Part shown: positions 10,882 to 54,518 of the stretch, piece by piece
Numbering within the stretch: position 1 is the first letter of the stretch
Layout of the letters: each line of letters starts with the position of its first letter
Assembly (NCBI GenBank): GCA_964615205.1
Contig: CAZTQA010000002.1
Coordinates: forward strand, 125,267 to 189,266
Source of the DNA: an uncultured Candidatus Saccharibacteria bacterium
GTDB taxonomy: Bacteria; Patescibacteriota; Minisyncoccia; Minisyncoccales; JAGMDC01
Length of the DNA: 64,000 nucleotides
Reading direction: 5' to 3'
Position numbers and translations under genes: made by a program
Notes under the pieces: model-generated
What the model was told of the DNA's origin: nothing
The model's input: only the letters and a program-made list of their open reading frames with translations
Database searches by the model: none

Positions 10882-10885
10882 AGAA

Positions 10886-11458
10886 GTGGAAAAAACAACT
10901 AAGCCAGATATAAGATATCTGAATGATATGAAATTAGTTCTTTATGACCAAAAATGGGCTAAGACAGCTCCTAATTTTGAGCTTTACTATATGCATCGGG
11001 GTATAAAGCAAAAAGGAGAATTCAGATATGATATTACTGTTATCCCCCCAAAAATGCTAGGCAAGGAATTTATAAAAACAAAAGGTCATTATCATATTGG
11101 AAAGCATAAAGAAATCTATCAAGTGCTAAAAGGCCAGGCCGTCTTTTTAATGCAGAAAGGGGAAAATGAAATTAAAGATGTCTACGCCGTGAAAGCAAAA
11201 GAAAAAGAATGGATTATTATACCTTCATATTATGGACACATCACTATTAATCCCAGCCAGACAAAAACCTTGAAAATAGCTAACTGGGTTTCTTGCAAAT
11301 GTAAGAGTAATTACACGCCTATTCAGAGAAAAAAAGGAGCTGGCTATTTCTATACTAAAAACGGATGGAAGAAAAATAAAAACTATAAAAAAGTTCCCAA
11401 ACTGCGTTTTGAAAAATCATTAAAAAAAGCGGGTGTGGCGGAACTGGCAGACGCGTAG
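10886..11458 (+). CDS. cupin-type (archaeal-type) glucose-6-phosphate isomerase
   Basis: 190 aa. TVIPPKMLGKEFIKTKGHYH...EIY and IIPSYYGHITIN fit the two cupin-PGI signatures as remembered (T..P...G.E...T.GH.H...E.Y and P....H...N). GTG start. The last 30 nt overlap a tRNA. Confidence 0.65.
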   Translation: MEKTTKPDIRYLNDMKLVLYDQKWAKTAPNFELYYMHRGIKQKGEFRYDITVIPPKMLGKEFIKTKGHYHIGKHKEIYQVLKGQAVFLMQKGENEIKDVYAVKAKEKEWIIIPSYYGHITINPSQTKTLKIANWVSCKCKSNYTPIQRKKGAGYFYTKNGWKKNKNYKKVPKLRFEKSLKKAGVAELADA

Positions 11459-11513
11459 CGTTCAGAGCGCTATCCCGATTATCGGGGTGAGAGTTCAAGT
11501 CTCTCCGCCCGCA
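11429..11513 (+). tRNA. tRNA-Leu (anticodon CAG)
   Basis: Manual cloverleaf: acceptor GCGGGTG/CGCCCGC, anticodon arm TAGCG-TTCAGAG-CGCTA, long variable arm, T arm GAGAG-TTCAAGT-CTCTC. CCA is not encoded. Confidence 0.85.
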
Positions 11514-11522
11514 CATACTAAA

Positions 11523-13214
11523 ATGCAAACTCAAAAAAATAAACAAACTGAAAACCTTCGCCTTATTCCTTTAGGAGGTTTAGGCGAAGTAGGAAGAAAT
11601 ATGTCGGTTCTTGAATACAAGAATCAGATTTTGATTATTGATATGGGTTTCAGGATGCCGGAAGAAGATATGCACGGTATTGATTACATAATTCCTAATG
11701 CTAAATATTTAAGGGGAAAAGAAAAAAATATTTTAGGCGTAGTTTTTACTCACGGCCATTATGACCATATCGGCGCTGTCCCCTATTTAGCTAAAAACTT
11801 AGGTAATCCTCCTATGTATGCTTCGGCTTTAACTAAAGGCATTATTCTGAAACGTCAGGAAGATTTTCCTGATCAGCCCAAACCCGATATCATTGAAATT
11901 AAACATGGAAGCAAAATAAAATTAGGGCCTTTTGAAGTTGAATTTGTACGAATGAACCACAACATCCCGGACAATTTAGGATTATTTATTGAAACGCCTG
12001 TGGGAAATATCTTCCATACTTCTGATTTTAAATTTGATGATGCACCCGTAAATGAGCTGCCTACTGATTTTAAAAAACTCAAGGAATTGGGCAAAAGAAA
12101 GGTTCTTCTTTTAATGTCTGACTCTACTGGAGCAGAAGAAGAAAATCATTCTTTGTCAGAGCAGGATATTCAGAAGAATTTAGAAAAGATTTTTATAGAA
12201 TCAAAAGGTAGAATTATTGCAGCCACATTTGCTTCCCTTATTAATCGAATCCAGCAACTCATAGCTCTCTCTGAAAAATATAACCGAAGAGTAATCGTAG
12301 AAGGCTACTCAATGAAAACCAACGTAGAGATATGCCGGGCTTTAGGATATATGAAAATCCAAAAAGGAACCCTGGTTGCACCTCAAGAGATGAAAAATCT
12401 GGCTGATTCCCAAATTACTTTTATCTGTACCGGCGCCCAAGGAGAAGAGAAATCCACCCTAAACAAGATTACTAATAATGATTATCCTTTTCTAAGATTT
12501 AAAAAGGAAGATACAGTTGTCCTTTCTTCCTCGGTTATTCCTGGAAACGAAAGAACAGTTCAGTTTTTGAAAGACAGAATCCTGCAGCAAGGAGCCCAAG
12601 TTTATCATTATAAAATGATGGACATTCATGCCGGAGGACATGCTCAAAGAGAAGAATTAAAAGAAATGATAACAATGATGAGACCTAAATTCTTTATGCC
12701 TATTCATGGACAATATTCTATGTTGGTTAATCATGCCCAGTTAGCTAATTCTATGGGAATACCAGAAAAAAATATTGTAGTAGCTGAAAATGGAAAAATT
12801 ATCAACATCAGCCCTGACAAAATATTCATCAAAAAAGACAGCATCCCCTGCGATTATGTTATGGTAGATGGATTGGGCATTGGAGATGTAGGAGAAATCG
12901 TTCTGCGAGACAGGCAGGTTCTTGCCCAAGACGGAATGTTTGTGATTGTGGTTCTGGTAGATAAAAAAACTGGTAAGGTTAGAAACTCGCCCGATATTAT
13001 CTCTCGAGGATTTGTCTACTTAAGAGAATCCAGACCTCTTTTGGCAGAAACCAGGAAAAAAGTCATTGCTATAATCAATAAAAGCGTCAGTCCCAACAAA
13101 ACTGTTAACTGGACTAATCTTAAGGAAGAACTGAAAAAGAGAATCGGAGAATTTCTCTTTCACAAAACTCAGAGAAGGCCTATGATTTTGCCTGTTATCA
13201 TCGAAGTTGACTAA
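11523..13214 (+). CDS. rnj: ribonuclease J
   Basis: HGHYDHIG metallo-beta-lactamase motif plus a beta-CASP-like body. Start moved to the ATG at 11523 (MQTQKNK) because the longer ORF would read through the tRNA. Confidence 0.85.
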   Translation: MQTQKNKQTENLRLIPLGGLGEVGRNMSVLEYKNQILIIDMGFRMPEEDMHGIDYIIPNAKYLRGKEKNILGVVFTHGHYDHIGAVPYLAKNLGNPPMYASALTKGIILKRQEDFPDQPKPDIIEIKHGSKIKLGPFEVEFVRMNHNIPDNLGLFIETPVGNIFHTSDFKFDDAPVNELPTDFKKLKELGKRKVLLLMSDSTGAEEENHSLSEQDIQKNLEKIFIESKGRIIAATFASLINRIQQLIALSEKYNRRVIVEGYSMKTNVEICRALGYMKIQKGTLVAPQEMKNLADSQITFICTGAQGEEKSTLNKITNNDYPFLRFKKEDTVVLSSSVIPGNERTVQFLKDRILQQGAQVYHYKMMDIHAGGHAQREELKEMITMMRPKFFMPIHGQYSMLVNHAQLANSMGIPEKNIVVAENGKIINISPDKIFIKKDSIPCDYVMVDGLGIGDVGEIVLRDRQVLAQDGMFVIVVLVDKKTGKVRNSPDIISRGFVYLRESRPLLAETRKKVIAIINKSVSPNKTVNWTNLKEELKKRIGEFLFHKTQRRPMILPVIIEVD

Positions 13215-17728: not shown

Positions 17729-17755
17729 AACACCGGGTGTCGGACACCGGGTGTT
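17729..17755. repeat. CACCGGGTG double motif hairpin
   Basis: aacaccgggtgt-cgg-acaccgggtgtt. A related CACCCGGT...ACCGGGTG hairpin is at 32106..32127. Confidence 0.5.
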
Positions 17756-17757: not shown

Positions 17758-20700
17758 TTATTTTTTGAAGCCGGTACCGGCTGGAATGAGCTTACCAATA
17801 ATAACGTTTTCTTTTAGTCCTCTCAACTTATCTTCTTTTCCTTCTAAGGAAGACTTAATCAAGACGCGGGAAGTTTCTTGAAAAGAAGCAGACGAAAGAA
17901 AGCTGTCTGTAGTTAAAGCCACTTTTGAAATTCCTAAAAGTGTTTGTTCTGTTTTAATGAGTTTCTTTTTTTGTTTTTCTAAACGCTCATTTTCTTCTAC
18001 CACCTTGGATTGTTCTAAGATTTCTCCTTTAAAGAATAAACTATCGCCTGGATCTTTAATTTTCATTCTGGAAAACATCTGACGGACAATAACTTCAATA
18101 TGTTTGTCGTGTATAGCTGCTCCTTGGCCAGCATATATTTTTTGAATTTCCCTTACAATATATCTTTGAGTTTCCTGTACTCCTAAAACCTTGAAAATTT
18201 CTTTTAAATCCAGATTTCCTTCGTAGAGTTGGTCTCCTTTTTTGACTTCATCCCCGGCTTTAACCAGAATAGTTCTTTTAATCGGAACTTTGATTTCAAT
18301 CACGTCTGATTTTTTAACTTTTCCTTTAACAGATTCAGGCTTTATTTTTATGATTTGCTGTTTGGCCTCCAATATTAATCCGTCAACTGAAGAGACAACG
18401 GCTTTGCCTGAAGGAATACGGCACTCAAAAACTTCTTCTACTCGCGGAAGTCCCTGGGTAATATCTCCAGCGCTAGCCACTCCTCCAGTGTGAAAGGTTC
18501 TCATTGTTAGTTGAGTTCCTGGTTCACCAATAGCCTGGGCGGCTACAATACCCACAGCCTGGCCAAATTCAACCAATTGATTATGCCCTAAGTCCCAGCC
18601 ATAACACTGCCTGCACACTCCTCTGGCAGATTTACAGTTTAAAGGAGAACGAATATTAACTTCATCAATATCAGCTTCAATAATTTTTCTAGCTTTTTGC
18701 CTGTCTATTATCTCCCCTGCTTTGATAATACCTTTAATATCTTCCAAGCAGACCCTTCCTAAAATTTTAAAGAAAAAATCCTGATTAGTTATATCTGCGT
18801 CCTTTTTATAGACTACAATTCCTTTTTTATCTTTGCAGTCTTCTTCAGTCACTATCACCTCATGAGAAACATCAATTAATCGCCTGGTAAGATAACCAGC
18901 TGTGGAAGTTCTTAAAGCTGTATCTGTAGTTCCTTTTCTGGCGCCGTGAGTAGAAATGAAATATTCCAAAGCATTGAATCCTTCTTTAAAAGAACTTTTT
19001 ACTGGCAGTTCCATAATTTGTCCAGCTGGATTAATAACCAATCCTTTCATGCCAGCCATTTGAACCGGTTGGTTCCAGGAACCTCTGGCTCCGGAATCTA
19101 CAATAGAAAACACCGAACCCAAACGGGGTAAAGCCTTGGGAATCAATTCCTCAATTTGTGATTTGGTCTTGTGCCAGACCTCAATCACTTCTGAAATTCT
19201 TTCCTCGTTGGATAATAATCCTTTTTTATAGTTTCTATATATTTTCTCAACTTCTTTTTCTGCTTGAGCCACCAATTCTTTCTTTTCTTTAGGAACAACC
19301 AAATCGTCCATACCCCAGGTAATACCGGAAAGAGTGGAATACTCAAAGCCTAAATCTTTTATTTTGTCCAAACAATGCCAGGCAGTTTCATTAGCGTACT
19401 TTTCTATAATTTCATTGATAACTCTTTCTAATCTCTTGGAATTTATTTGTTCATTCACAAAATCATATTCATCTGGAAGAGCATTGTTAAACAAAATTCT
19501 ACCTACTGAAGTTTCTATTAAATTCCCTTCTTTAAATCTGACTTTTACCTTAGCTCTTAGATCTATTAATCCAGTATCTTTGGCTAAAATAGCTTCATTT
19601 TTAGAACCAAAAGTCTTATCTTCACCTAAGGCCTTATCTTTAATATTGGTAATCCAATAACATCCCAAAACTATATCTTTACTGGGACTTACAACTGAAT
19701 TGCCAGTAGCCGGCTTTAATAAATTAACCACTGAAAACATTAATTCCCTGGCTTCTTTTTGGGCTTCTTCAGAGAGAGGAACATGGACTGCCATTTGGTC
19801 GCCGTCAAAATCAGCATTGAAAGCAGAACAAACCAAAGGATGAACTCTGATAGCTTCCCCTTCAATTAGCATGGGCTTAAAGGCCTGAATGCCTAAGCGA
19901 TGCAGAGTGGGAGCCCTATTTAATAGAACTAACTTATCTTTAACCACGTCTTCTAAAATTGCCCACACATCATCTGTTTCCTCGTCAATAAGATGACTTG
20001 CTCCTCTAACATTGTATGCTAATTCCTTTTCTAAAATTCCTTTAATAACAAAAGGTTTAAATAATTCCAAAGCCATTTTCTTGGGAAGTCCACACTGATT
20101 GAGTTTTAGATTGGGCCCCACCACAATTACAGAACGGCCAGAATAATCCACTCTTTTACCCAAAAGATTCTGCCTAAATCTTCCTTGTTTTCCTTTGAGC
20201 ATATCTGCCAATGATTTTAAAAGACGCTGTCCGCCAGTAGAAGCCTGGGTCATGGTCCCCTTTCTCATAGTATTGTCTATTAAAGCATCTACAGCCTCCT
20301 GAAGCATTCTTTTTTCGTTTCTAACTATAACTTCGGGAGCATTTATTTCTAAAAGATATTTCAAGCGATTGTTTCTGTTGATTACTCTTCTATAAAGATC
20401 GTTTAAATCCGAGGAGGCAAATCTTCCCCCATCCAACTGAACCATAGGTCTTAAATCCGGAGGAAGAACTGGTAATACAGTAAGGAACATCCATTCTGGA
20501 CGAATATCGGCGTCTTTCATCTTTTTCAGCATCCTTAATCTTCGCAGAAGCTTTCTCTTAATAGTAATGGAACTTTCTTTAGCGAGTAAATCTTTAACTA
20601 TTAAATCTTTATTGTTATATTCTTTTTCTAATCCTTTTACTAATTTATCTAAATCAACTTTCTCAAAAATATTTTTTAAAGTTTCCGCTCCGGTTCCAGC

Positions 20701-30780: not shown

Positions 30781-30854
30781 GGGCGTGTAGCTCAGTGGTA
30801 GAGCATCCGTCTTATAAGCGGGAGGTTTCGCAGGTTCGAATCCTGCCACGCCCA
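30781..30854 (+). tRNA. tRNA, anticodon UAU (Ile) by manual folding; atypical 7-nt variable region
   Basis: Acceptor GGGCGTG/CACGCCC, D arm GCTC-AGTGGTA-GAGC, anticodon arm TCCGT-CTTATAA-GCGGG (two G:U pairs), T arm GCAGG-TTCGAAT-CCTGC. Starts immediately after the ftsH stop. Confidence 0.6.
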
Positions 30855-31999: not shown

Positions 32000-32084
32000 G
32001 CCCAGGTGGTGGAATTGGTATACACACATGGTTGAGGGCCATGGCTCATTTTTGGGCGTGCGGGTTCAAGTCCCGCCCTGGGCA
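32000..32084 (+). tRNA. tRNA-Leu (anticodon GAG)
   Basis: Acceptor GCCCAGG/CCTGGGC, anticodon arm CATGG-TTGAGGG-CCATG, long variable arm, T arm GCGGG-TTCAAGT-CCCGC. Starts directly after the rplS stop. Confidence 0.85.
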
Positions 32085-32089
32085 CATCT
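32067..32089 (+). repeat. 23-bp direct repeat, copy 1 (tRNA-Leu 3-prime end)
   Basis: caagtcccgccctgggcacatct, identical to 32146..32168. Confidence 0.8.
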
Positions 32090-32105
32090 CAAAACTATAA
32101 GGGTT

Positions 32106-32145
32106 CACCCGGTTATTCAACCGGGTGCCCGGTCGTATGACCGGG
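32106..32145. repeat. two adjacent G+C-rich hairpins between the direct repeats
   Basis: cacccggtt-attc-aaccgggtg (32106..32127) and cccggtc-gtat-gaccggg (32128..32145). Confidence 0.6.
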
Positions 32146-32168
32146 CAAGTCCCGCCCTGGGCACATCT
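32146..32168 (+). repeat. 23-bp direct repeat, copy 2
   Basis: caagtcccgccctgggcacatct. Abuts the stop codon of the minus-strand ferritin-like gene. Confidence 0.8.
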
Positions 32169-32449
32169 TATTCAGACAATTCTTCAACCTCTTCCCTGCC
32201 CTCCTCCAATTCTTTTTCCTGTTCCTTGTCTCTTTGGAGAAGAAGAGCTTCAAACTCACCAACATGAGTTTTTTCTTCTTTAGCAATATCCATTAAAACT
32301 TTTCTAATGTTTTCATCATCAGTCATTGAAGCTAGCTGTTCGTAAAGATTGACTGCATCCAGTTCAGCAATTATGCCTACTCTTAAAATTTCTTGGTCTA
32401 TATTTTCTTTGGGTACTTTCTCTAAATTGATAGGAATTTGTGAAAGCAT
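32168..32449 (-). CDS. EncFtn-like (encapsulated-ferritin family) ferritin-like protein without a recognisable encapsulin targeting tail
   Basis: 93 aa. AELDAVNLYEQ and AKEEKTHVGEF place Glu29, Glu59 and His62 at the same E...30 aa...E-x-x-H spacing I recall for EncFtn ferroxidase ligands. Acidic C-terminus. Confidence 0.55.
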   Translation of the reverse strand: MLSQIPINLEKVPKENIDQEILRVGIIAELDAVNLYEQLASMTDDENIRKVLMDIAKEEKTHVGEFEALLLQRDKEQEKELEEGREEVEELSE

Positions 32450-32504
32450 ATTTTTTATTATTGTACATTATACGCGACCTTTCTAATTTTATTCTAACAT
32501 TTAT

Positions 32505-32852
32505 TTATACGCGGTTGAAGTCATCTTCTAAACGTTCAATATCATCCTCTTCTAAATATTCGCCTAATTCAACTTCAAAGACCTCTAAATTAGAATGGCC
32601 TGTGTTTTCTAAGCGGTGTATTTCTTCTTTTTTTATAATAATACTATCTCCCTGTTTTAAATTCATTTCTTTTTCTCCCTTAATAGCTTTCGCCTGCCCC
32701 TTAGTAATAACCCAGTATTCTTTTCTGTGTTTGTGTCTTTGCAGACTCAATCTTTTTTGTGGCAAAATAATTATTTTTTTAATTTTAAAACCCTGGTCCT
32801 GACCAATTATTTCAAAATATCCCCAAGGTTTTTGTGTTTTCTCTCTTGTCAT
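32505..32852 (-). CDS. cupin protein resembling the C-terminal cupin domain of type II phosphomannose isomerase
   Basis: 115 aa: KPWGYFE...LSLQRHKHRKEYWVITKG...GDSIIIKKEEIHRLEN. Confidence 0.65.
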   Translation of the reverse strand: MTREKTQKPWGYFEIIGQDQGFKIKKIIILPQKRLSLQRHKHRKEYWVITKGQAKAIKGEKEMNLKQGDSIIIKKEEIHRLENTGHSNLEVFEVELGEYLEEDDIERLEDDFNRV

Positions 32853-35410
32853 AATTTTATCTTTAAAGTAACTATTTCAAAAGGATTAATAGTAAATTCC
32901 ATAATATTTTTATTGAGCTTTATTTTCTTGCTTATTTTTTTATCCTCTTTCTCAAGCAGATTAACTGTCTGTACATCTTTGATGTCTTTAAAAGAATTTA
33001 TCCTTGCCCTTGTCTTCTTGCCGGAAATTTCATAAACCCTGACAATAAAACCATTATTTTTCTCTGCCTTTTTAAAAGCACTTAGCAAAACATTATCTGG
33101 TTCAACTTTCAAAAATGAATTTTCTGCCCTACATTTTCTGTCCGGCTCCACCTGAAGAGCTGCTAACTTATTATTGACTTGCCAGGCCTGTTTCCAAACC
33201 TTGGCTTTCTTCCAATCATTTTGATGAGGATAAATGGAATAGTTAAAAACATAATTCCTAAATTCCCGAGCTTCAGACACAGGAATAATAGGACCGGCTT
33301 TGCCATCAGAAGAAAGCACCTCCACCGACCTTAATAAGGTTAGATACATACAATTATCTCTGACTTCATTTTCCGGATTACCTGTATTTATAAGGGTTAA
33401 CCCCTTTCTTTGGTCGCTGTAATCAAACCATTGCCAGCAAGGAAAAATACCCGGACATTCTTCATAATAAGAGGCGCACTTTAAATGATATTGGTCAGTT
33501 TTTCTCTCTGTTGTTCCAAACTGACTTTCAGAAACATATTTATCTTGATTGACTTTAGTGTCAAATCCTACCCTTATTCTTATTTTGGGATGATTGTTTT
33601 CTACTTCGGTTACAAAATCGATTCTGGGTAATTCTTTGTAAATAATCATTTTCTTTCTAAATTTAATAAAGGGATACCTCCAGATTTGGGGCTTCAAACT
33701 ATCTACTAATCTATAAGGCCATCTCAAAGAAAAGTAATCAGTTTCAATGTTAATAATTTTTCTTAAATTAGAATCTTGTGTATTGTAATTTCTGATTTTA
33801 AAAGTTCCGTATTTTAAACCTTTTCCACTTTCAGTTTTTAGAGGAAAATTAAAACTTTCTTTATGATTATAGAGGTCTCCCGATTCATCATCTAAAACTA
33901 TCTCATTGCCTTTACATAAAAGCTTGTTTCTCTGAAAAACTTCAATTAATCCATCTTCTTTAGAAAACTTAACATTGAAAAATTTGTTTTTAATAAGATT
34001 GTTGTTCTGTTTAAGAAAAAAGCTTTCATCTATTTGGGGTTTAGCACTCATAATTCTGTAAACCTTATAGCCCAGTGCTGGAACATCGGCTACAAAACCT
34101 ATCTTAATTCTCTTCAAAGAATTATCTGAATATCTCTGGGATTCTATCTCTTCAACTTCCTTCTCTATATTCTGGTTTTTAACCCCAGTTATTTTGAAAA
34201 CCTTCCCTTGTTTAAAATCTAACTCGCACTCCACCCAATCAGACACATCCCAGGATAATGAATTGAAAACAGCTATCTCCTCAAAATTGGGGGAGGTCGA
34301 ACCTCCCCCAATTTTGGAATTATTGATAAGTATTGAGTTTAAAACATAATTAAAAGGATCTGGAATTCTGCTCTTTAAAAAACTAATGTTTTCTTTAGCT
34401 TCAGTGTACCCGGAATCCACACCTGTGCCAGGAACTACATCATGAAAAGCTAAAAACAAAACTTTCTTCCATAAGTTTCTCAAATTGATAGGGCATTTAT
34501 TTCCTAAAAGAGAATTGATAGAACTGAATTTTTCAAAACCAATTAAACTATTTTCGCATTCACGCAAATCTTTTTTGAGCCAAATCCTGGTAGAGGCTGT
34601 GCCTGGAAAGACGCGGGAATATCTGCCTGAATACATTTCTCCTTTTCTGACGCGAAGTTTTTTTTGCTCTTTCTCCAAACTCCTGAAAAATTCAGAGACA
34701 AGAGCTATCTTCATTTTGGATTTATGTTTTCGGTTCCATTTTTTAACCGCTGACATTGTTTCTTCTTGAGGCAGAGTTACTCCGCTGCCAGAAGGCATTA
34801 AAATATTTTTAGTCGCCGCCCAGCCTTTTAATTTAGTATAACTTTCTTCTAATTTGGTTAGATCTAAACCGGCCCTATATCCTAAGGGCATAAAATGAGA
34901 AATAATCTTTGTTCCATCCAGTCCTTGCCATATAAATTCAGAAAATTTTCTTTGAAAAGCTCCCCTTCTGAAAGCCACGTATTTATAACCGCATTTACGA
35001 TATACTTGGGGAAGCTGATTATTAAGCCCGAAACTGTCTGCCTGCCACATTACTTCAACATCTTTGTTGAAGTTTTCTTCCACGAAATCTTTACCCACAG
35101 CTATTTCCCTCACCAAGGTTTCACCTTGGGGAAACATAGTATCTGCCATTAAATATTCTCCATCAGCAATCTCAATTTTGTCTTCTTGAATATATTTTTT
35201 AATTTTTCTAAAAAGCTCCGGGTATTTATTTTTGATTTCTTCTAATAAATATGTCTGTTCAATCAAAAAGCGATAATCTTTTTCTTTTTCCATCAAGATT
35301 ACAACTTTCTTTAAAATTAAATCTATATTGATATGAAAATAATCTTCTCGGGTAAAAACCCAAACCGCATCATAATGAGTATGTGGAACTAAATAAATTT
35401 CATTTTTCAT
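32849..35410 (-). CDS. GH38 alpha-mannosidase family protein
   Basis: LVPHTHYDAVW N-terminal GH38 signature and family-typical length. Start set at ATG 35410 (MKNEIYLVPH), giving an 11-nt overlap with the upstream gene. Confidence 0.8.
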   Translation of the reverse strand: MKNEIYLVPHTHYDAVWVFTREDYFHINIDLILKKVVILMEKEKDYRFLIEQTYLLEEIKNKYPELFRKIKKYIQEDKIEIADGEYLMADTMFPQGETLVREIAVGKDFVEENFNKDVEVMWQADSFGLNNQLPQVYRKCGYKYVAFRRGAFQRKFSEFIWQGLDGTKIISHFMPLGYRAGLDLTKLEESYTKLKGWAATKNILMPSGSGVTLPQEETMSAVKKWNRKHKSKMKIALVSEFFRSLEKEQKKLRVRKGEMYSGRYSRVFPGTASTRIWLKKDLRECENSLIGFEKFSSINSLLGNKCPINLRNLWKKVLFLAFHDVVPGTGVDSGYTEAKENISFLKSRIPDPFNYVLNSILINNSKIGGGSTSPNFEEIAVFNSLSWDVSDWVECELDFKQGKVFKITGVKNQNIEKEVEEIESQRYSDNSLKRIKIGFVADVPALGYKVYRIMSAKPQIDESFFLKQNNNLIKNKFFNVKFSKEDGLIEVFQRNKLLCKGNEIVLDDESGDLYNHKESFNFPLKTESGKGLKYGTFKIRNYNTQDSNLRKIINIETDYFSLRWPYRLVDSLKPQIWRYPFIKFRKKMIIYKELPRIDFVTEVENNHPKIRIRVGFDTKVNQDKYVSESQFGTTERKTDQYHLKCASYYEECPGIFPCWQWFDYSDQRKGLTLINTGNPENEVRDNCMYLTLLRSVEVLSSDGKAGPIIPVSEAREFRNYVFNYSIYPHQNDWKKAKVWKQAWQVNNKLAALQVEPDRKCRAENSFLKVEPDNVLLSAFKKAEKNNGFIVRVYEISGKKTRARINSFKDIKDVQTVNLLEKEDKKISKKIKLNKNIMEFTINPFEIVTLKIKL

Positions 35411-36125
35411 GTAAGATAATTCTTTTAATTGATTTCGCCCATTCTTGAGGACCATTTTTAACAAGAATAGGAATATCTACATTTTTTAACATTGGCTTGT
35501 CATTCTCTGAATCGCCCAAACCAATAGTGATTATTTTTCCAAACTCCTTCTTATACATCTGGGTTAATAATTTAACTGCTTTTCCTTTATCTGCTTTTTT
35601 GCCAAAAACTTGGATAAACCTGCCTCCAGAAACAACATTGAATTCCTTTTTTAACTCTTTTAAAGCTTTTTTATCTGATTCAACCACTGTCTCTCCAAAT
35701 TCCCTTTTTTTTGCCAACTTAGCCCTCCCTAATTTCAGTCCTGTAATTTCAGCCACTTGTTTAGCGGTCATATCTTTGTATCCTTTTATTTTATATTTTC
35801 TCTGCAAAGTTTTAATTTCTTTTTTAATTTTATCAGACTGAATTCCTAAAACAACTTTTAAGGTGTTAATTTGTTTAAAATAATTTTTAGGAACATAAAC
35901 AGCCGAGCCATTTTCTACTATAATGGGGTGATTTAATCTCATTTTTCTGCGGAAAACACTTTGTTCTGCCTTTGTTTTGGCAGAGCAAAAAATTACAGGG
36001 ATTTTCTTCTTTTTTAAAATATTTAAAACCGGCTCTGCCGGTTTAAAAGAATAAGCTTTATTAAGCAGGGTTCCGTCTAAATCAGTAAAAATTATATATT
36101 GTGTATTCTTTGCTTTTTTAAGCAT
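35400..36125 (-). CDS. HAD-IIB phosphatase of the mannosyl-3-phosphoglycerate phosphatase (MpgP/YedP) family
   Basis: IIFTDLDGTLL...PVIFCSAKTKAE...IVENGSAV parallels E. coli YedP as remembered. A GDSENDKPML motif lies near the C-terminus. Confidence 0.7.
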   Translation of the reverse strand: MLKKAKNTQYIIFTDLDGTLLNKAYSFKPAEPVLNILKKKKIPVIFCSAKTKAEQSVFRRKMRLNHPIIVENGSAVYVPKNYFKQINTLKVVLGIQSDKIKKEIKTLQRKYKIKGYKDMTAKQVAEITGLKLGRAKLAKKREFGETVVESDKKALKELKKEFNVVSGGRFIQVFGKKADKGKAVKLLTQMYKKEFGKIITIGLGDSENDKPMLKNVDIPILVKNGPQEWAKSIKRIILHEK

Positions 36126-36131
36126 TGACTA

Positions 36132-36431
36132 TTATAGAATACTCCAGAACCTCCATTCATGGGGTACATCAACTCCGTAAATACGCAGATGAAAAAAATC
36201 GTTTAAATCGCTTACAAAATGACCTATACCGAAAAAAATCAATGGCAAAGCCCAAAAATTATCATAAAAAACAATCCCGACAATAATTACAAACAAACCA
36301 TAAATCCAATGGTGAGGAGTTTTCTTCGTCGTTAGATATTCGTTATTTCGGTATTTATCTCCAATTCTCCCAATAGCAAACCCCACAAACAAAGCTGATA
36401 TGTAAATTGAAACTAAAATTAAGAAATTCAT
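36132..36431 (-). CDS. small integral membrane protein, unknown function
   Basis: 99 aa with three predicted TM helices. Confidence 0.4.
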   Translation of the reverse strand: MNFLILVSIYISALFVGFAIGRIGDKYRNNEYLTTKKTPHHWIYGLFVIIVGIVFYDNFWALPLIFFGIGHFVSDLNDFFHLRIYGVDVPHEWRFWSIL

Positions 36432-41140: not shown

Positions 41141-41227
41141 TGGTGCCGCAGGAGAGATTTGAACTCTCAAGTCCTTTCGGACACTGGGTCCTAAACCCAG
41201 CGCGTCTGCCAGTTCCGCCACCGCGGC
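41141..41227 (-). tRNA. tRNA-Leu (anticodon UAG), CCA encoded
   Basis: Minus strand: acceptor GCCGCGG/CTGCGGC, anticodon arm CTGGG-TTTAGGA-CCCAG, long variable arm, T arm GAGAG-TTCAAAT-CTCTC, 3-prime ACCA. Confidence 0.85.
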
Positions 41228-49168: not shown

Positions 49169-50191
49169 TTATGGCTTTGTTTCCTCTAAATCTCCCATAA
49201 TTCCACTAGTTCCTCCTGAAAAAGGATCAATAGCAACTTCAAACATAAGATCGCTGCCAGCATCTGGACAAGGACTACCATAACAACTAGTCTGCCAAGT
49301 ATTGCTTCTATCTGACCACCAGGCTCTACCGCCAGGATAAAAACCGTCTTCTGCCATTTTTAGTCTACATCTGTGTCCGTCCCAATCGTCAGAAGTATTT
49401 TCGGAACCATTTGATCTAGTGCTTAAAACAACGAAAGAGTATTTTTCACCTTCATATACTCTATAAGGCGAAAAAGTAAGATTCTTCTCTCCACAACCAC
49501 CGGTGCTACCCACTGATATATTATTACTAGTAGCCAATATTTGGTTTCCCGGTCTACCGTTCTCGACATCCCTTAATTGTATTCTCCAATAGCCATAACA
49601 TCCACCAATTCCGCCACCAAGCCGAGATCCTCTCCAAACAGTTATCTGAATAAGGTCACCCGTCATGTCTGCCTGAAAAGTTTGTCCTACTCTTCTTACA
49701 TCAACACTCAACCATTCATCGTAAGTAGCGCCTGGGGCATCACAAGTGCTTGAGCATTGTGCTGCATAAGTACAAGGATCTGGACCTAAGTTAGTAAAAT
49801 TAGAATATTGATCTGGATTAATTACCCCTACTCTAGAAAACAAAACAGCTCTTTCAACGTCATTGAAGTTACCAATAGATTTAATCGCCTCTGGATTAGC
49901 TATTGTGCCCTCTGTTACTTCTAAACAATACTGGCTTCCATTATCTAAAGTAGTCCAACCGCTAGAACAAAGCTGATCAATAAAATCTCCCTGATCCAAA
50001 CGGAACAAAGCATGCTCAATTCCTGAATCAGCTGCATTTAAGGCTTTTAGCGATTCTTCTACATTGCTCGCCATTCTCATTTCTTTAACAGTCAAAGAAG
50101 TCAGCCATATACCGATAGATAAAATTACAGAAAGAAAAACCAGAGTTATCAGTAAAGCATTTTGTCCTTTTTGGTTTTTAAGATCAATCAT
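49169..50191 (-). CDS. PilX-like minor pilin / pilus-associated protein with large C-terminal domain
   Basis: 340 aa. KGQNALLITLVFLSVILSIG...EMRMASN...ALNAADSGIEHA fits the PilX N-terminal pattern. The C-terminal roughly 230 aa are Cys/Trp/Gly-rich and unassigned. Confidence 0.55.
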   Translation of the reverse strand: MIDLKNQKGQNALLITLVFLSVILSIGIWLTSLTVKEMRMASNVEESLKALNAADSGIEHALFRLDQGDFIDQLCSSGWTTLDNGSQYCLEVTEGTIANPEAIKSIGNFNDVERAVLFSRVGVINPDQYSNFTNLGPDPCTYAAQCSSTCDAPGATYDEWLSVDVRRVGQTFQADMTGDLIQITVWRGSRLGGGIGGCYGYWRIQLRDVENGRPGNQILATSNNISVGSTGGCGEKNLTFSPYRVYEGEKYSFVVLSTRSNGSENTSDDWDGHRCRLKMAEDGFYPGGRAWWSDRSNTWQTSCYGSPCPDAGSDLMFEVAIDPFSGGTSGIMGDLEETKP

Positions 50192-50211
50192 AAATATAGA
50201 TTTTATAAAAT

Positions 50212-51816
50212 TTATTCTTCAAAACAATAAAGATGGGCCCTGGTGTTGTAATCCCAATGGCACTGTAAATTACTACTGCTTGTCCATCCACCATCTCTCT
50301 GAAGATTGGTGCCTATTCTGCCTACAAGAGACGAACTTGCAGAAGTCCAATGATTACAATTATAATATGTCGATCCAAACTGCCTTGCCTCCCCGTTGCT
50401 GTTTGTGCCTGTCCAGACCCTACCGTTGGTAAAATTGCCATTCTCGTTATACTTTATTAAATTTCGAATGCTACCGTCAATCAAATCTCCCTTAGAAAAA
50501 GCAATTATTGATCTTTCGCTTGGCCCCTGGTTATAGTAAAGAGCATCTGCTATTCGATCCTTAGCATCAACAGTATTGGTAGAAAGCCAGGCTCTCCAAG
50601 TTCCTCCAATCCCAGCCGCATCAGCCAAGCTTTGGCATCTGCCATCTGCCCCGGCTAATCCACCAAAAGCTCCATGATACATTTCGCTTGAAATAAAAAC
50701 TCTTTTTAAATCAATCGAAGGAGGTATTTCTACATTAGTATAGGTTTCTTCAAAACAATATAATCTATATCTGTTAGTGCATGGGGGAAAAGTACTACTA
50801 CCAGCCCAGCTACTACCTGTTTGGCCAACAAAGCCAACCCCCCCTTGTCCCACTGGAGTAGCTCCCAGCCAGCAACAATCCCACTCGTAACCCACAGCTC
50901 CAAAATGATGACCGCAAAAATCCCAAGAAGCTCTATAGCTAGTATTTCCCCCCGAGCAATCAGTGCTGCTCCAAACTCTTTCATTCGTAGCAACAAGATT
51001 GCCGTATTCATCGTAATTAATCGGGTGGTTTATTGAACAATCAAGAAGATCGCCCTTAGAACCGGCTATAAATTGCCATTTACTGCCATCGTAAATCACA
51101 AAAGGACCATCTTGAATACGGTCTCTAACGTTCCAAGCAGTATGCGTATATGGATTATAAGCGGAAATCCAAGCCATCCAGGTCCCACCGAGCCCGGCTG
51201 TATCAGCCCAGTTCTGGCATAATAGATCAGCTCCAGTTATATTACCAAGTCCTGCCATATCGCCTCGAACTTTTAACGAACTAACAAAGACTCTATTTGC
51301 TGAAATCATTAATTTATCTCTTTGGTTCTTGTTCAAAAGTGAAATAGTGTTTTGAAAATCCATAGAAATATTAGAATTTTGAACTGACTGAATAGTCATT
51401 GAAATAGTAACTTTCGGTTCAAGAATGTTATTAATAAAATCATTAACATTAAAATTCAAATTAGTGAATTTAATCTTATTAGAGCTGATAACATTTGAAT
51501 TCTTTTCTAATTGTTCATTAGCGTTAAGTCTATAAACTATAGAATTACCATGAGCATCAATAAAACTTAAATCTGAATCATTATTACCAGCCTGACTACC
51601 AGAAATAGCGCCCATTCTTATCTCTCGAGTCATTAATTCCATTAAATAACGGCCATCAGATTCTACCTCTTTAATTTGTTCAACTTGCGCCTTGCTTTTT
51701 AAGGTGGAAGTAAAAATACCCAAAGCAGCTGTAAAAACCACGGTAAAAATAGCAATTGAAACAAGAATTTCAACCAAGGTAAAACTTTTGTCTTTTTGAG
51801 AAATAATCTTATTCAT
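50212..51816 (-). CDS. PilW-like minor pilin carrying two endostatin/DUF1554-like modules
   Basis: Prepilin N-terminus QKDKS/FTLVEILVSIAIFTVVF. Two repeats follow, each starting RVF[VI]SS...GAD..C...AD.AG.GGTW.AW.S and ending ...LYCFEE. Confidence 0.6.
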   Translation of the reverse strand: MNKIISQKDKSFTLVEILVSIAIFTVVFTAALGIFTSTLKSKAQVEQIKEVESDGRYLMELMTREIRMGAISGSQAGNNDSDLSFIDAHGNSIVYRLNANEQLEKNSNVISSNKIKFTNLNFNVNDFINNILEPKVTISMTIQSVQNSNISMDFQNTISLLNKNQRDKLMISANRVFVSSLKVRGDMAGLGNITGADLLCQNWADTAGLGGTWMAWISAYNPYTHTAWNVRDRIQDGPFVIYDGSKWQFIAGSKGDLLDCSINHPINYDEYGNLVATNERVWSSTDCSGGNTSYRASWDFCGHHFGAVGYEWDCCWLGATPVGQGGVGFVGQTGSSWAGSSTFPPCTNRYRLYCFEETYTNVEIPPSIDLKRVFISSEMYHGAFGGLAGADGRCQSLADAAGIGGTWRAWLSTNTVDAKDRIADALYYNQGPSERSIIAFSKGDLIDGSIRNLIKYNENGNFTNGRVWTGTNSNGEARQFGSTYYNCNHWTSASSSLVGRIGTNLQRDGGWTSSSNLQCHWDYNTRAHLYCFEE

Positions 51817-51817
51817 A

Positions 51818-52696
51818 TTATTTATTTAAAACTTTAACATAAATCCTGTAAGGTTGGTTATTCGTGGCAGTATATGCATCATAAAGACAGTCCGGATCGC
51901 TGTGAAAAGCATGAGAACCATGAAGCTTACACTCGCTAAAATCTAAGATAGTACAACCGCTAGGATTTGTGACAAAACCGCACCATAGGTCTCTACCGAC
52001 TAGATCCCATCCCCCAGTGATCAAAGTGGTATCGGTCCCACAAGTATAGAAACCATCAATATCGCAAAAAGCTTTACTGCAATCCCCTCGAGAGGAAGAT
52101 GTGCCAGCATATTCCCAGTGATATAATTTTTGAGGATTTGGCGACATCTCGTAATCGTATAAACGTCTTTCTAAATTTATCGTATGTTGGGTTCCTTGAG
52201 TGTCATGCCAACTAACTTGTGAAACTACTTTTATTTCATCATTGGAAATTTTATCCAACTTAATAAAACGATAAAAACCTGTTTCTACGGCTGTAGCCGA
52301 ACTAATATGAGTATAAAGCCCATCATCAAAATAAAGCTGGCAATTACCGTCATCTTTGCATTCCCAAACATTTGCATATATAGGCATGCTAAAATGATTT
52401 ATAGTACCATCGGGCTCAACTGTACTCCCGAATCTCTCATTTCCCTGTTTACCAATATTTGTATCAAAATCTCTTCCCAATAATAAATTGGTATCTCTGA
52501 TATTATGTAATATTTCAATGCCTTCTTGGGCTAAATTAACAGCGATAACTCTTTCCGGACTAACCTTGGCGATAGAAAGATTGCGAAGAACTAATCCCAC
52601 GACGCCAACTAAACCAACTGTAATTACAGTAATAGCTACCAAAACCTCTAGAATAGAAAAGCTTTTATTCTTATTGTTCTTTAAATATGTAAACAT
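51818..52696 (-). CDS. PilV-like minor pilin with Cys-rich C-terminal domain
   Basis: Prepilin N-terminus NNKNKS/FSILEVLVAITVITVGLVG...LAQEGIE. Confidence 0.6.
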   Translation of the reverse strand: MFTYLKNNKNKSFSILEVLVAITVITVGLVGVVGLVLRNLSIAKVSPERVIAVNLAQEGIEILHNIRDTNLLLGRDFDTNIGKQGNERFGSTVEPDGTINHFSMPIYANVWECKDDGNCQLYFDDGLYTHISSATAVETGFYRFIKLDKISNDEIKVVSQVSWHDTQGTQHTINLERRLYDYEMSPNPQKLYHWEYAGTSSSRGDCSKAFCDIDGFYTCGTDTTLITGGWDLVGRDLWCGFVTNPSGCTILDFSECKLHGSHAFHSDPDCLYDAYTATNNQPYRIYVKVLNK

Positions 52697-52704
52697 AAAT
52701 TTTA

Positions 52705-53154
52705 TTATTGTATTTCAATCAAACCAGCTGAATTAACAGTAATTCGCTTCGTGGAACCATCAGAATATTTAATATCAATGTCTCTAGGGATATCAACGGA
52801 CCCATCGGGTGTCCTGAAACGAATGCTATTACTAGAACTATCTATGGTTATTGATTTCAAAGGAAAATCAATTTCTTCAATCTCTACCTCCGGACTATAT
52901 TTACATAGCACATATTTACTATCCCCATTAGTGTATTTTATACCATAACTATCAGGCACAGAATCATTATGCCTCTCTGCAGACATGGCCATGTTTTGGG
53001 CACGGCGTAGATCAGTAACCAGCTGCCGGGCAGCAACGTCAAGGTCAGTTGAAGGTCTGGGATTAATAAAAACTACTCCAAGCAAAATGAGCATCATGAC
53101 TATTACTGCTAGAAGTTCTATTAAGGTCATTCCTTTATTGTTGAATTTAAGCAT
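52705..53154 (-). CDS. GspH/FimT-like minor pilin
   Basis: Prepilin N-terminus NNKG/MTLIELLAVIVMM, followed by AARQLVTDLRRAQNMAMS. Confidence 0.6.
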   Translation of the reverse strand: MLKFNNKGMTLIELLAVIVMMLILLGVVFINPRPSTDLDVAARQLVTDLRRAQNMAMSAERHNDSVPDSYGIKYTNGDSKYVLCKYSPEVEIEEIDFPLKSITIDSSSNSIRFRTPDGSVDIPRDIDIKYSDGSTKRITVNSAGLIEIQ

Positions 53155-53157
53155 TTT

Positions 53158-53997
53158 TTAAATAAACAGATTTAAATACCAATTTGTTATTTGCTGGCCC
53201 CAGAATAAAGCGATAAAAGTGCCTGTTACCAGAAAAGGACCAAAAGGAATTTCTGATTTCAGGGTTTTCTTTTTAATTAAAATCAGTTCTATTCCTATTA
53301 TAGCACCAATTAGAAAAGCAAAAAACATAGCTACAAAAATATTGGGCCAGCCAAGCAGCAAGCCCATTAAAAAAGCAAGCTTTATGTCTCCTACTCCCAT
53401 GCCCTTGCCATGAGTAATAAGAACAATTGCCAGGAAAAAACCAGCAGCAATAAAAGCTGCTGAGATAAAGCTCCAAATCCCAATCCGCCAGCTGGCGGAC
53501 AATGACCAATCAAATCCCAATGACCAATTTTCAAACAATTTATAAATAAAGGCTATCCCTATAGCTGGGAAGATAACCTTGTCTGGGATGATGTAGTGCT
53601 TCAAGTCATAGACAAAGATAATTATTAAAATGCTGGCAATAGCAAAAAGAAACATTAAATCCAAAATCTCTGGCTCTGCCAGATCTGGCGTAGCTAGACA
53701 AAATCCTAACGACCAATAATAAAAAATTGGTAGAAATAGCAAACCCGTTGCTATTTCTACCAATGGGTATTGAATAGAGATTTTTTTGTGGCAGTAGCGG
53801 CATTTAGCTTTTAAAATAAAAAAGCTTAGTAAAGGGATTAAATCATACCAAGCCAGTTTGTGTCTGCATTTCGGGCAATAAGACCTGCCCTTCAAAGCGC
53901 TCTCCCCCTTCTCCAAGCGATAAATAACGCAATTTAAAAAACTACCCACTGTCAGGCCAAAAATAAAAACAAAAACATAGAAAACAACATTTACCAT
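53158..53997 (-). CDS. pilD: prepilin peptidase (A24 family) PilD
   Basis: N-terminal CxxC...CxxC (CPKCRH...CRYCHK), a multi-TM body, and KGMGVGDIKL and PFGPFL aspartyl-protease motifs. Confidence 0.9.
   Translation of the reverse strand: MVNVVFYVFVFIFGLTVGSFLNCVIYRLEKGESALKGRSYCPKCRHKLAWYDLIPLLSFFILKAKCRYCHKKISIQYPLVEIATGLLFLPIFYYWSLGFCLATPDLAEPEILDLMFLFAIASILIIIFVYDLKHYIIPDKVIFPAIGIAFIYKLFENWSLGFDWSLSASWRIGIWSFISAAFIAAGFFLAIVLITHGKGMGVGDIKLAFLMGLLLGWPNIFVAMFFAFLIGAIIGIELILIKKKTLKSEIPFGPFLVTGTFIALFWGQQITNWYLNLFI
53669..53698. repeat. 30-bp palindrome, family D copy 2 (inside pilD)
   Basis: tctggctctgccaga/tctggcgtagctaga. In pilD it encodes LATPDLAEPE, a different reading frame of the element from copy 1. 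Confidence 0.7.
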
Positions 53998-54041
53998 TAG
54001 ATTATTATACCAATTTCCCCAAATTTCACAAAAAAATAGAG
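53981..54041 (-). promoter_or_regulatory. pilD promoter/start module (copy 1 of a 61-bp duplication)
   Basis: Minus strand reads TTGTGA, 16 nt, TATAAT, aatcta, ATG GTA AAT GTT GTT TT. Near-identical to 56979..57038. Confidence 0.65.
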
Positions 54042-54059
54042 ATCCGATTTCTGTTTTTT

Positions 54060-54260
54060 TTATTTCTTAAATTTTTTAGGTAGCTCTACCCCCAAGTCTC
54101 TACAGATTTTTTTGCTTAAAAAATCGTTTACTTCATTATGTCTTGGAACCGTGGAAGATCTTTTGATTAAAGAGTTATAAAAAACACTATGTCTTAAACC
54201 TTCTCTAACAAAAACACATCCTTGCTTAATTAAGTGTTTAATTAAATCTACCCTCTTCAT
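54060..54260 (-). CDS. hicA: HicA-family mRNA interferase toxin
   Basis: 66 aa: LIKHLIKQGCVFVREGLRHSVFYN...VPRHNEV, a typical HicA/YcfA pattern. Confidence 0.8.
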   Translation of the reverse strand: MKRVDLIKHLIKQGCVFVREGLRHSVFYNSLIKRSSTVPRHNEVNDFLSKKICRDLGVELPKKFKK

Positions 54261-54481
54261 TAAAAAGAAACTGAAAGAGATTCCCGAATAATGTTATGTT
54301 TTGAAACCTCTTTCCTATTAAGAAACCTGTTAGTCTCAAGAATTAATAAAAGCGCCTCTTTAAGATTTTCTTTAGTTTCTTCAAGAGTTTTTCCTTGAGT
54401 ATTGACGCCTGGGATTTCTTCTATCCATCCAATATACCATTTTCCGCTTTTTTTATATATTGCCGTAAATTGCCTTGCCAT
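54260..54481 (-). CDS. hicB: HicB-family antitoxin (short, UPF0150-type)
   Basis: 73 aa: FTAIYKKSGKWYIGWIEEIPGVNTQGKTLEETKENLKEAL. Overlaps hicA by 1 nt. Confidence 0.75.
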   Translation of the reverse strand: MARQFTAIYKKSGKWYIGWIEEIPGVNTQGKTLEETKENLKEALLLILETNRFLNRKEVSKHNIIRESLSVSF

Positions 54482-54489
54482 ATGCTCTA

Positions 54490-54518
54490 ATTATATAAAA
54501 TCCGACCCTAAAAGTCAA
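54490..54518 (-). promoter_or_regulatory. candidate promoter of hicBA, leaderless geometry
   Basis: Minus strand reads TTGACT, 17 nt, TATAAT. The -10 box ends 8 nt before the hicB ATG. Confidence 0.5.

Follow-up and report, generated by a model that had tools for sequence, protein, structure and literature searches.

The window, as the whole 64-kb stretch of DNA analysed here is called, belongs to a Parcubacteria-like member of the Patescibacteria with about 36% G+C, and the homologues of its L19 gene carry the names Parcubacteria or Nealsonbacteria. The stop codon of L19 lies directly 5' of an intact tRNA-Leu(GAG) gene, here called type A, which is convergent with an EncFtn-like gene. The type-A tRNA has the acceptor strands GCCCAGG/CCTGGGC, the T-arm GCGGG-TTCAAGT-CCCGC, the discriminator A32084, and no encoded CCA. 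The same allele is found at the related loci L054, L019, L059, and L064. The features of the window site are as follows.

32000..32084, + strand: intact tRNA-Leu(GAG), type A (ARAGORN; Rfam tRNA, 53.4 bits)
32067..32089, + strand: repeat copy 1, made up of T-loop CAAGT, 3' T-stem, 3' acceptor strand, discriminator, and trailer CATCT
32085..32089, + strand: trailer CATCT, first copy (from the sequence)
32090..32100, + strand: A/T-rich filler CAAAACTATAA, 11 nt (from the alignment; not conserved)
32101..32105, + strand: GGGTT, the cassette's left arm, repeating 32062-32066 (5' T-stem G's and T54-T55)
32106..32127, + strand: hairpin 1, 9-bp stem, loop ATTC (CACCCGGTT-ATTC-AACCGGGTG)
32128..32145, + strand: hairpin 2, 7-bp stem, loop GTAT (CCCGGTC-GTAT-GACCGGG)
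32146..32163, + strand: tail of the cassette, CAAGTCCCGCCCTGGGCA, 18 nt (T-loop C56-T60, 3' T-stem, 3' acceptor strand, and discriminator of type A)
32164..32168, + strand: trailer CATCT, second copy; 32168 is also where the complement of the EncFtn stop codon begins
32168..32449, - strand: EncFtn-like/rubrerythrin-like gene, 93 aa (PF22277, PF02915), convergent with the tRNA

The split T-arm cassette

A sequence-only reading of this DNA had described a 23-bp direct repeat of the tRNA-Leu(GAG) 3' end, two G+C-rich hairpins between the copies, and an EncFtn-like gene adjoining the second copy, and the repeat and both hairpins are exactly as described. The 23-mer, CAAGTCCCGCCCTGGGCACATCT, stands at 32067-32089 and 32146-32168, the hairpins occupy 32106-32127 and 32128-32145, and the EncFtn stop codon overlaps the final base of repeat copy 2; the gene itself is a neighbor, outside the cassette. 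Copy 1 starts at T-loop position 56, thus taking in the last 5 nt of the T-loop, and ends 5 nt past A32084. A dispersed repeat unrelated to the tRNA, which the same reading had considered, is ruled out: The 64-kb window holds only the two exact copies, with no further match at up to three mismatches (shuffles 0/100) and no other copy of the hairpin block. An assembly artefact is likewise ruled out by the identical arrangement in seven independent metagenome assemblies (ENA ERZ27248922, ERZ27248897, and ERZ27248936; JGI 3300028169, 3300005645, and 3300028272; Logan SRR8437246).

Besides the overlap of the EncFtn stop codon with copy 2, two further features were absent from the sequence-only reading. 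The T-arm sequence GGGTTCA (32062-32068) recurs at 32101-32107, and hairpin 2 is approximately an inverted copy of hairpin 1, the whole units being 83% complementary. The resulting unit is a 63-nt cassette (32101-32163) composed of GGGTT, a 40-nt double hairpin, and CAAGTCCCGCCCTGGGCA. It is a 5'-truncated copy of the type-A tRNA-Leu(GAG) 3' end, running from the T-stem G's to the discriminator, and the T-loop of this tRNA-like segment is interrupted by the 40-nt block, in which two G+C hairpins stand side by side in inverted orientation to each other. Read one way, the block would lie exactly between T55 and C56 (GGGTT^CAAGT) with no duplication; read the other way, it would follow A57, with an overlap of 2 nt (CA). 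The stem of hairpin 2 extends to 9 bp with the flanking TG/CA, the hairpin region folds with z = -3.7 to -4.6, and the reverse strand of the block scores 43.5 bits with the covariance model.

With the 40-nt block skipped, covariance models align the cassette flanks to the intact type-A T-arms (GGGUU followed by CAAGUCCCGCCCUGGGCAC) of the window, L019, L054, L059, and L064. The cassette is without the GCCCAGG partner strand and has no paired acceptor stem or cloverleaf, and ARAGORN and the Rfam tRNA model call no tRNA in 32090-32168. A scan of the region with Rfam 15, including CRISPR repeats, ribozymes, and tRNA-like RNAs, left only the tRNA above its gathering threshold; the best non-tRNA matches (E ~0.08-0.9) fell far under theirs, e.g., 19 bits vs 45 for CRISPR-DR9. 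The ends of the cassette (GGGTT... and ...CCTGGGCA) show no terminal inverted repeats. Covariance searches found no further copy in the 64-kb window or, with filters off, in ~100 kb of related loci. The additional hairpin copy that had been claimed at 17729-17755 is instead ACACCGGGTGT repeated twice in tandem, and neither covariance model matches there.

Occupied and empty sites in close and distant genomes

Comparison of this tRNA locus in relatives, as the sequence-only reading had proposed, revealed that the arrangement varies. The closest relative found, L054 (JGI 3300056904; L19 C-terminus 55/58 aa, EncFtn 90%, tRNA 98%), has an empty site that reads ...CCCTGGGCA-CAACA-(EncFtn stop), with 5 nt from the tRNA to the stop codon, no hairpins, and no second copy. 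The corresponding stretch of the window is ...GGGCA-CATCT-(filler and cassette)-CATCT, overlapping the EncFtn stop. The site in L055 (RecG 91%, EncFtn 87%) is occupied, with a variant hairpin 2 (ATGACTGGG/CAAGTCCC...) whose 3' arm differs by a single substitution, and it ends ATGACTGGG/CAAGTCCCGCCCTGGGCA/CAT/TTA(stop). This is a partial copy; the complete copies retrieved number three (the window, L057, and L058). The syntenic loci L015, L018, and L019 (L19 76-78%) have neither EncFtn nor the cassette, and L018 and L019 have an ordinary A-tract/stem/T-tract terminator 3' of tRNA-Leu. These comparisons show the structure to be an insertion/deletion polymorphism at the 3' end of the tRNA.

The junction GGGCAAGTCCCGCCCTGGGCA, found only in occupied sites (an intact tRNA reads GGGTTCAAGTCC), was used as a query, and it returned one contig per large collection, L057 and L058. 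The gene order in L057 is SBP, PGI, tRNA-Leu(CAG), cassette, and RNase J; in the window, the order at 8890-13214 is syntenic with this locus and the cassette is absent. The order in L058 is L19, tRNA-Leu(GAG) with the acceptor GCGGACG, cassette, and tRNA-Ala(GGC). Unoccupied counterparts are thus available in L054, in L059 and L064 for the L058 lineage, and in the window itself for the L057 locus. The hosts are distant from one another, with 52% aa identity in L19 (window vs L058) and 47% in RNase J (window vs L057), and the neighboring tRNAs are 58-62% identical at the nucleotide level vs 87-90% for the cassettes. Orientation is constant relative to the tRNA, and the cassette sits a few nucleotides 3' of tRNA-Leu; the filler between trailer and GGGTT measures 11 nt in the window, 0-1 nt in L057, and 7 nt (AAATTTA) in L058.

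Aligned across genomes, the unit reads GG(G)TT / CA-hairpin 1-TG / hairpin 2 / CAAGTCCCGCCCTGGGCA. Differences are confined to the 40-nt block with one exception: The 23 flank nucleotides are invariant except for the first G in L058, and the tail is invariant in the window, L055, L057, and L058. All hairpin pairs (16/16) form in the window, L057, and L058, with four compensated pairs (3/9 in hairpin 1 and one in hairpin 2) and no one-sided changes, and pairing registers slid by 1-3 columns are 23-56% paired. This level of covariation was attained by 7/500 shuffles with three sequences only, and conservation of the hairpin structure by compensatory change is suggestive, not statistically strong. 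Two competing pairings were rejected. An acceptor-like pairing of GCCCGG with the tail was dropped on the compensatory change in L058, which supports hairpin 2. A fold of the whole window transcript in which copy 2 pairs with the 5' strand of the tRNA would make this copy an alternative tRNA 3' end, but neither L057 nor L058 could form it.

The distant copies also bear on how the repeat arose. Copy 2 had been read as the duplicated local target of a lost island or as a long target duplication of 23 bp. The first proposal is not supported, the same 63-nt unit occurring in L057 and L058, whose own tRNA 3' ends (...CCTCCTACCCGCA and ...CCTCTCGTCCGCA) mismatch the tail. Because these tRNAs differ from the tail in T-arm and acceptor, the 18-nt tail is not a duplicate of the local gene. 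Nor is the 23-bp length general. The direct repeat matches the resident tRNA 3' end at 23/23 positions in the window and, in L057 and L058, only at GCA plus 4-6 nt of trailer. What recurs after the final A of the cassette is the trailer, i.e., CATCT in the window, CAAAAA in L057, and TTAT in L058; in the latter two, the repeat is 4-6 nt, or 7-9 nt with the shared GCA. This is probably, though not provenly, a short target duplication (n=3), and its significance is weakened by the trailers being A/T-rich and often starting with CA. The 23-nt identity in the window would then arise because the resident tRNA is the source allele of the tail (18 nt) and the trailer is duplicated (5 nt).

A second family is found in L019 (minus strand, 20483-20566), where GGGTT/hairpins/CAAATCCC...CGGCA lies 3' of a tRNA that is missing its 5' part because the locus ends there. 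From the tRNA onward, the locus reads CATT-GGGTT, ~52 nt of hairpins unlike those of the window, CAAATCCCTTCCTCGGCA-CAAAC, and a terminator. Its architecture matches that of the window cassette, as does the point of insertion in the T-loop, and the trailers have only CA in common. The equivalent site in the window, at tRNA-Leu(TAG) (41141-41227), has the same terminator and no insert. The L019 tail differs from its adjacent tRNA and is closer to the 3' end of the orthologous tRNA-Leu(TAG) of the window (12/18).

The differing alleles at the L19 locus indicate that tRNA alleles turn over there. It holds three types of tRNA-Leu(GAG), two of them LAGLIDADG-linked. L059 and L064 (L19 84% and 83% to L058 over the aligned region; 87% and 82% in the database search) have type-A tRNA-Leu(GAG) followed by tRNA-Ala after 2-13 nt (in L059, 2 nt after the encoded CCA; in L064, 13 nt) and no cassette. 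The L058 tail ends 4 nt from tRNA-Ala, the spot where type-A tRNA-Leu ends in these two relatives, and it could be the remainder of a resident type-A gene. In L060-L063 (L19 82-90%), L19 is separated from a type-B tRNA-Leu(GAG) by a LAGLIDADG gene, and the L058 tRNA-Leu is 87% identical to this LAGLIDADG-linked allele (L060). In L014 (L19 92% to the window), a third tRNA-Leu allele stands beside a LAGLIDADG gene that is frameshifted and ~60% identical to the L060 gene. Between the lineages that carry the cassette at 87-90% identity, the type-A tRNA itself is 87% identical. Elsewhere, tRNA-Ile genes were seen split at 37/38 by an insert bearing another tRNA-Ile. A homing-endonuclease scar was considered, since LAGLIDADG genes do occur in relatives, and was rejected: The upstream tRNA of the window is the putative target allele itself, and a random repair scar would not stay conserved across genomes.

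Proposed explanations: insertion, allele turnover, and RNA function

A discrete, conserved, hairpin-constrained cassette, tied to tRNA-Leu 3' ends and gained or lost on short timescales, is securely established. As to its nature, the best explanation is that tRNA-Leu 3' ends are the specific sites at which a small, non-autonomous cassette inserts, a reading that we hold tentatively, as plausible without quite being probable. (Our probabilities for the various readings overlap and need not add up to one.) The cassette would be moved in trans, now or formerly, by an enzyme, either recombinase or transposase, that recognizes the hairpin DNA, probably in single-stranded form, together with the tRNA-Leu 3' end. 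The T-arm-like flanks would serve as its target-mimicking core, and insertion would duplicate 4-6 nt of the local trailer. Such a cassette would need no cellular function, although in L058 it would have to be co-transcribed within the tRNA operon. A double-stranded circle of ~80 bp is physically implausible as an intermediate.

The L057 copy and the fixed 5' boundary favor insertion. The rules for trailer and target are weakened by their basis in three complete copies and one partial copy, and the single copy per 64 kb counts against an insertion cassette, being unlike typical MITE or REP families. The relatives of L058 that hold type-A tRNA-Leu at the tail position also count against it, as the tail could be local there instead of imported, and the compensatory covariation fits RNA function equally well. 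The statement that no integrase is present stood up to Pfam scans and precomputed domains, in which RecA and FtsK are the only DNA-transaction proteins. The 64-kb window showed no domain of an integrase, a transposase, or another recombinase (Pfam for unannotated ORFs; precomputed domains for the central genes) and no HUH transposase (RAYT, TnpA, or IS91-type Rep). Neither a full-length relative nor a circular or excised form appeared among the retrieved sequences, the cassette and hairpin patterns had 0 matches in viral contigs, and BLAST of phages and plasmids gave 0 matches.

The main rival, itself rather unlikely, is an in-situ relic of tRNA allele turnover, with the tail as the 3' end of a displaced local tRNA-Leu. 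A 40-nt hairpin element would have landed at T55^C56, the hairpin block alone would be mobile, and the intact upstream tRNA-Leu would be a restored copy in the window or a foreign allele in L058. This would explain why the flanks, with the 40-nt block removed, read as an unbroken type-A T-arm and 3' end. The L058 relatives and the L019 family favor it: The L058 tail stands 4 nt from tRNA-Ala, in the place of the relatives' type-A gene, and the L019 tail is closer than the adjacent tRNA to the orthologous tRNA-Leu(TAG) end. Turnover of tRNA alleles is, moreover, seen in the three tRNA-Leu(GAG) types and the split tRNA-Ile genes. However, L057 bears a GAG-type, type-A tail at a conserved tRNA-Leu(CAG)/RNase J locus, and the 5' boundary (G)GGTT is the same in all copies and in the second family, which independent decay would not give. 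A relic would also require an extra 28-nt duplication event in the window, and the identical trailers of L058, where the allele is foreign, would demand a conversion tract that ends exactly at the tRNA 3' end.

Insertion and turnover may also be combined. It is conceivable, though we regard it as doubtful, that Patescibacteria harbor an undescribed class of miniature hairpin elements that home to fixed tRNA positions and drive allele turnover. The fixed positions would be T-loop 55/56 in tRNA-Leu and anticodon loop 37/38 in tRNA-Ile, and the elements would travel with tRNA fragments or whole replacement tRNAs, alongside LAGLIDADG genes. On this view, the cassette in the window would belong to the class and be moved by an enzyme recognizing DNA hairpins.

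A structured RNA, transcribed with tRNA-Leu and acting in tRNA-operon expression, is improbable. It might aid processing, insulate, protect the 3' end, or serve as a decoy by virtue of its tRNA-like T-arm and acceptor tail; a role at the RNA level is compatible with either an insertion cassette or a relic. The perfect conservation of the hairpins, their compensatory changes, and the invariant single-stranded flanks would suit an RNA, as would the constant orientation relative to the tRNA and a degree of conservation like that of the type-A tRNA. In L058, the cassette lies between tRNA-Leu and tRNA-Ala, which are 2-13 nt apart in relatives and probably co-transcribed. The cassette is nevertheless dispensable, being absent at the same tRNA in L054, L059, L064, and L019; it matches no Rfam family, and its acceptor-like tail is without a partner strand. 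All pairs are Watson-Crick and so do not indicate the transcribed strand. A guide-RNA-like reading, with a hairpin, an 18-nt "spacer" matching the tRNA, and a PAM-like GGTT, is no more than an idea: There is no nuclease or transposon, and the insertion distance does not fit.

Very improbable is the classical scar that the sequence-only reading had suggested, i.e., the attL/attR of a tyrosine-integrase island at the tRNA-Leu T-loop, later deleted to 56 bp. The repeat begins in the T-loop and passes the 3' end, like the T-loop-class tRNA att sites reportedly described by Williams in 2002, and an empty site exists in L054. In a scan of viral contigs, a 19-mer of the tRNA-Leu end marked att or tRNA sites in 34 prophage contigs from unrelated bacteria, and none of these 34 extends the match to CATCT (0/34). 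All 34 sites belong to a different tRNA-Leu (anticodon-loop TTTAAAATCCC), and the match shows only that the 19-mer is a generic att sequence. Three genomes have this same tiny insert, two of them with a flanking tRNA that lacks the repeat, and it is not credible that three separate islands shrank to the same ~40-56 bp, which argues against an island scar. The hairpins would also lie inside the crossover core, and there is no integrase in the 64 kb and no foreign gene between the repeats.

That the hairpins serve tRNA-Leu and the convergent EncFtn gene as a bidirectional intrinsic terminator, with the repeat as an incidental local duplication, is scarcely credible even with two stable G+C hairpins between convergent genes and a terminator hairpin at the same position in L018 and L019, as neither hairpin is followed by a T-run on either strand or called by a terminator scan, genuine terminators in these genomes are of the A-tract/stem/T-tract form, the L058 cassette lies between co-oriented tRNAs and the L057 cassette upstream of RNase J, and L054 has no hairpin at all.

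Significance and likeness to known elements

Mobile DNA classically lands in tRNA genes, where the known players are kilobase-sized islands with integrases, and Patescibacteria are thought to be poor in mobile elements. Here, a 63-nt non-coding unit is better conserved than the neighboring tRNA genes across very distant ultra-small bacteria and has been gained or lost between near-identical lineages. If mobile, the cassette would be among the smallest site-specific elements described and would suggest that Patescibacteria have an unrecognised recombination activity that reads hairpins; if a relic, it would document frequent tRNA allele replacement in reduced genomes. Such cassettes mimic att sites and partial tRNAs and may mislead island finders, tRNA annotation, and assemblers.

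No element built in this way is known to us from earlier descriptions, and a search of the literature on the cassette sequence and on Patescibacteria tRNA att sites found nothing relevant. The cassette is closest to tRNA att duplications and to hairpin miniature elements (REPIN, PATE) and lacks defining features of each. Islands and prophages of the tyrosine-integrase type leave attL/attR duplications of tRNA 3' ends, and their integrase-less derivatives are known as CIMEs. The cassette shares with these the intact tRNA followed by a partial 3' copy from the T-loop past the gene end, the presence/absence polymorphism, and an orientation fixed relative to the tRNA. It differs in its insert of only 41-56 bp, the same in three genomes, in a partial copy that mismatches the adjacent tRNA in two of three genomes, in a hairpin-interrupted core, and in the lack of an integrase in the window.

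REP/REPIN (BIME) doublets are mobilised by RAYT, and PATEs are palindrome-associated elements derived from IS200/IS605. Like these, the cassette is non-autonomous and intergenic at gene 3' ends and has two similar inverted hairpins conserved in structure rather than sequence; on the GGGTT^CAAGT reading, the hairpin block would also lie beside a fixed short motif with no target duplication. Unlike them, it is single copy, has no GTAG-type motif, has hairpins that abut the junctions directly, and is always embedded in a tRNA-Leu 3' fragment, and no Y1 transposase was found in the window. As for the fixed-length duplication of MITEs, the 4-6 nt trailer is repeated in 3/3 complete copies, with an ambiguous register and n=3, and the repeat is absent in the L019 family.

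Downstream of E. coli tyrT are repeats that each contain the last 19 nt of tRNA-Tyr, in 178-bp tandem units. In both cases, the intact gene has a short copy of a tRNA 3' end beyond it, but the tyrT repeats are tandem in one genome, have no hairpin-split T-loop, and are not common to distant taxa. Rickettsia palindromic elements (RPEs) are multi-copy sequences of 100-150 bp that insert into functional RNA and protein genes. The cassette is likewise a small palindromic element within structural-RNA gene sequence in a reduced genome, but it sits in a 5'-truncated tRNA fragment, not a functional gene, and RPEs are larger and multi-copy.

Rolling-circle elements of the IS91 family insert 3' of CTTG/GTTC and may carry flanking DNA by read-through. 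At 40 nt, the hairpin block is far under any known member, and the window has no HUH transposase. The likeness, offered as a lead only, is that CTTG immediately precedes the block on the minus strand (ACTTG^; ATTTG^ in the L019 family), a reading that gives no duplication and on which the tail resembles the flanking DNA of one-ended transposition.

LAGLIDADG genes and tRNA-Leu(GAG) alleles

In several of the related loci compared with the window, the gap between the L19 gene and tRNA-Leu(GAG) houses a LAGLIDADG homing-endonuclease gene whose product matches PF14528 above the cut-off.

L014 636-1288: LAGLIDADG homing-endonuclease gene between L19 and tRNA-Leu(GAG)
L060 977-1636 (also in L061-L063): LAGLIDADG homing-endonuclease gene between L19 and tRNA-Leu(GAG)

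The two lineages carrying the gene have L19 proteins that are only ~50% identical, and the L014 and L060 endonucleases are ~60% identical to each other; the L014 copy has a frameshift. Both genes are linked to tRNA-Leu alleles that differ from the window's own (type A) and have the T-loop TTCGAGT. The LAGLIDADG genes at this site suggest homing without an intron, with replacement of the tRNA allele. Over 60 nt on the 3' side of the type-B tRNA-Leu(GAG) allele, the distant lineages L015 (10748-10807) and L060 (1740-1800) are 93% identical, and therefore the type-B allele and its 3' flank seem to move jointly. L015 also has a 221-aa open reading frame with inverted copies of AGAGCGGCTTCGCCGCGTTCTTTA on both sides, for which there was no Pfam match.

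Split and stacked tRNA-Ile genes

Bacteria normally read AUA with a modified CAU anticodon, and a tRNA-Ile with an encoded TAT anticodon is unusual. The window has such a gene at 30781-30854, with TAT encoded in the genome, and it is kept in all relatives examined. Two relatives have split or stacked tRNA-Ile sequences.

L018 3791-3985: split tRNA-Ile(TAT)
L019 8889-9044: stacked tRNA-Ile 5' halves

The resident L018 gene, which is the L019 allele, is interrupted at position 37/38 (CTTATA^AGG) by an insert of ~125 nt containing a complete, different tRNA-Ile(TAT). On its flanks are the complementary sequences TTGCCAAAATAGGT and ACCCATTTTGGCA, together with a small hairpin. In L019, an intact tRNA-Ile is preceded by two stacked tRNA-Ile 5' halves, with TTGCCA(A/G)AATAGGT behind each of them. 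Together, these arrangements look like serial, self-targeting insertion of a mini-element that carries a tRNA.

Small elements at other tRNA 3' ends

Further small units are found in L019, including a second family of cassette with the layout of the window's split-T-arm unit, and other hairpins and tail.

L019 20483-20566, minus strand: second-family split-T-arm cassette, GGGTT/hairpins/CAAATCCCTTCCTCGGCA
L019 3417-3555 and 9135-9265: A/T-rich repeat of ~125 nt, two copies
L019 17480-17570, minus strand: insert at a tRNA-Glu 3' end, compared with L018 13063

The second-family cassette lies 3' of a tRNA truncated where the locus ends, and its place corresponds to that of tRNA-Leu(TAG) in the window. 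A terminator common to L019 and the window follows the cassette directly, and window 41141-41227 is the empty counterpart of the site. The A/T-rich repeat, directly 3' of tRNA-Gly and of tRNA-Val, is another small element at tRNA 3' ends. The tRNA-Glu insert (~85 nt) has inverted termini, CACGTAAAA...TTTTACGT, and beyond it the end of tRNA-Glu recurs as a short repeat; L018 lacks the insert.

The sequence-only reading had placed a further copy of a cassette hairpin at window 17729-17755. This site, in the FtsK/rpoC intergenic region, is a tandem ACACCGGGTGT x2 that folds into an 11-bp hairpin with a T-run behind it; it has only ACCGGGTG in common with the first cassette hairpin and is not a cassette copy.

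Variable tRNA-Leu to RecG interval and the pilus cluster

The interval from tRNA-Leu to RecG (window 32168-36431) varies among the window, L054, L055, L015, L018, and L019. Within this set, EncFtn is confined to the lineages of the window, L054, and L055. The window shares the MPGP-GH38-cupin mannoside cluster with L015, L018, and L019, but L055 lacks the cluster; there, EncFtn comes directly after a homologue of the 99-aa membrane protein of the window.

Elsewhere, the window holds a long type IV pilus/pseudopilin cluster.

Window 49169-63845, minus strand: PilO, two T2SSE ATPases, T2SSF, prepilin peptidase, and several N-methyl pilins
Window 55050-56948: STT3-like oligosaccharyltransferase, inside the pilus cluster
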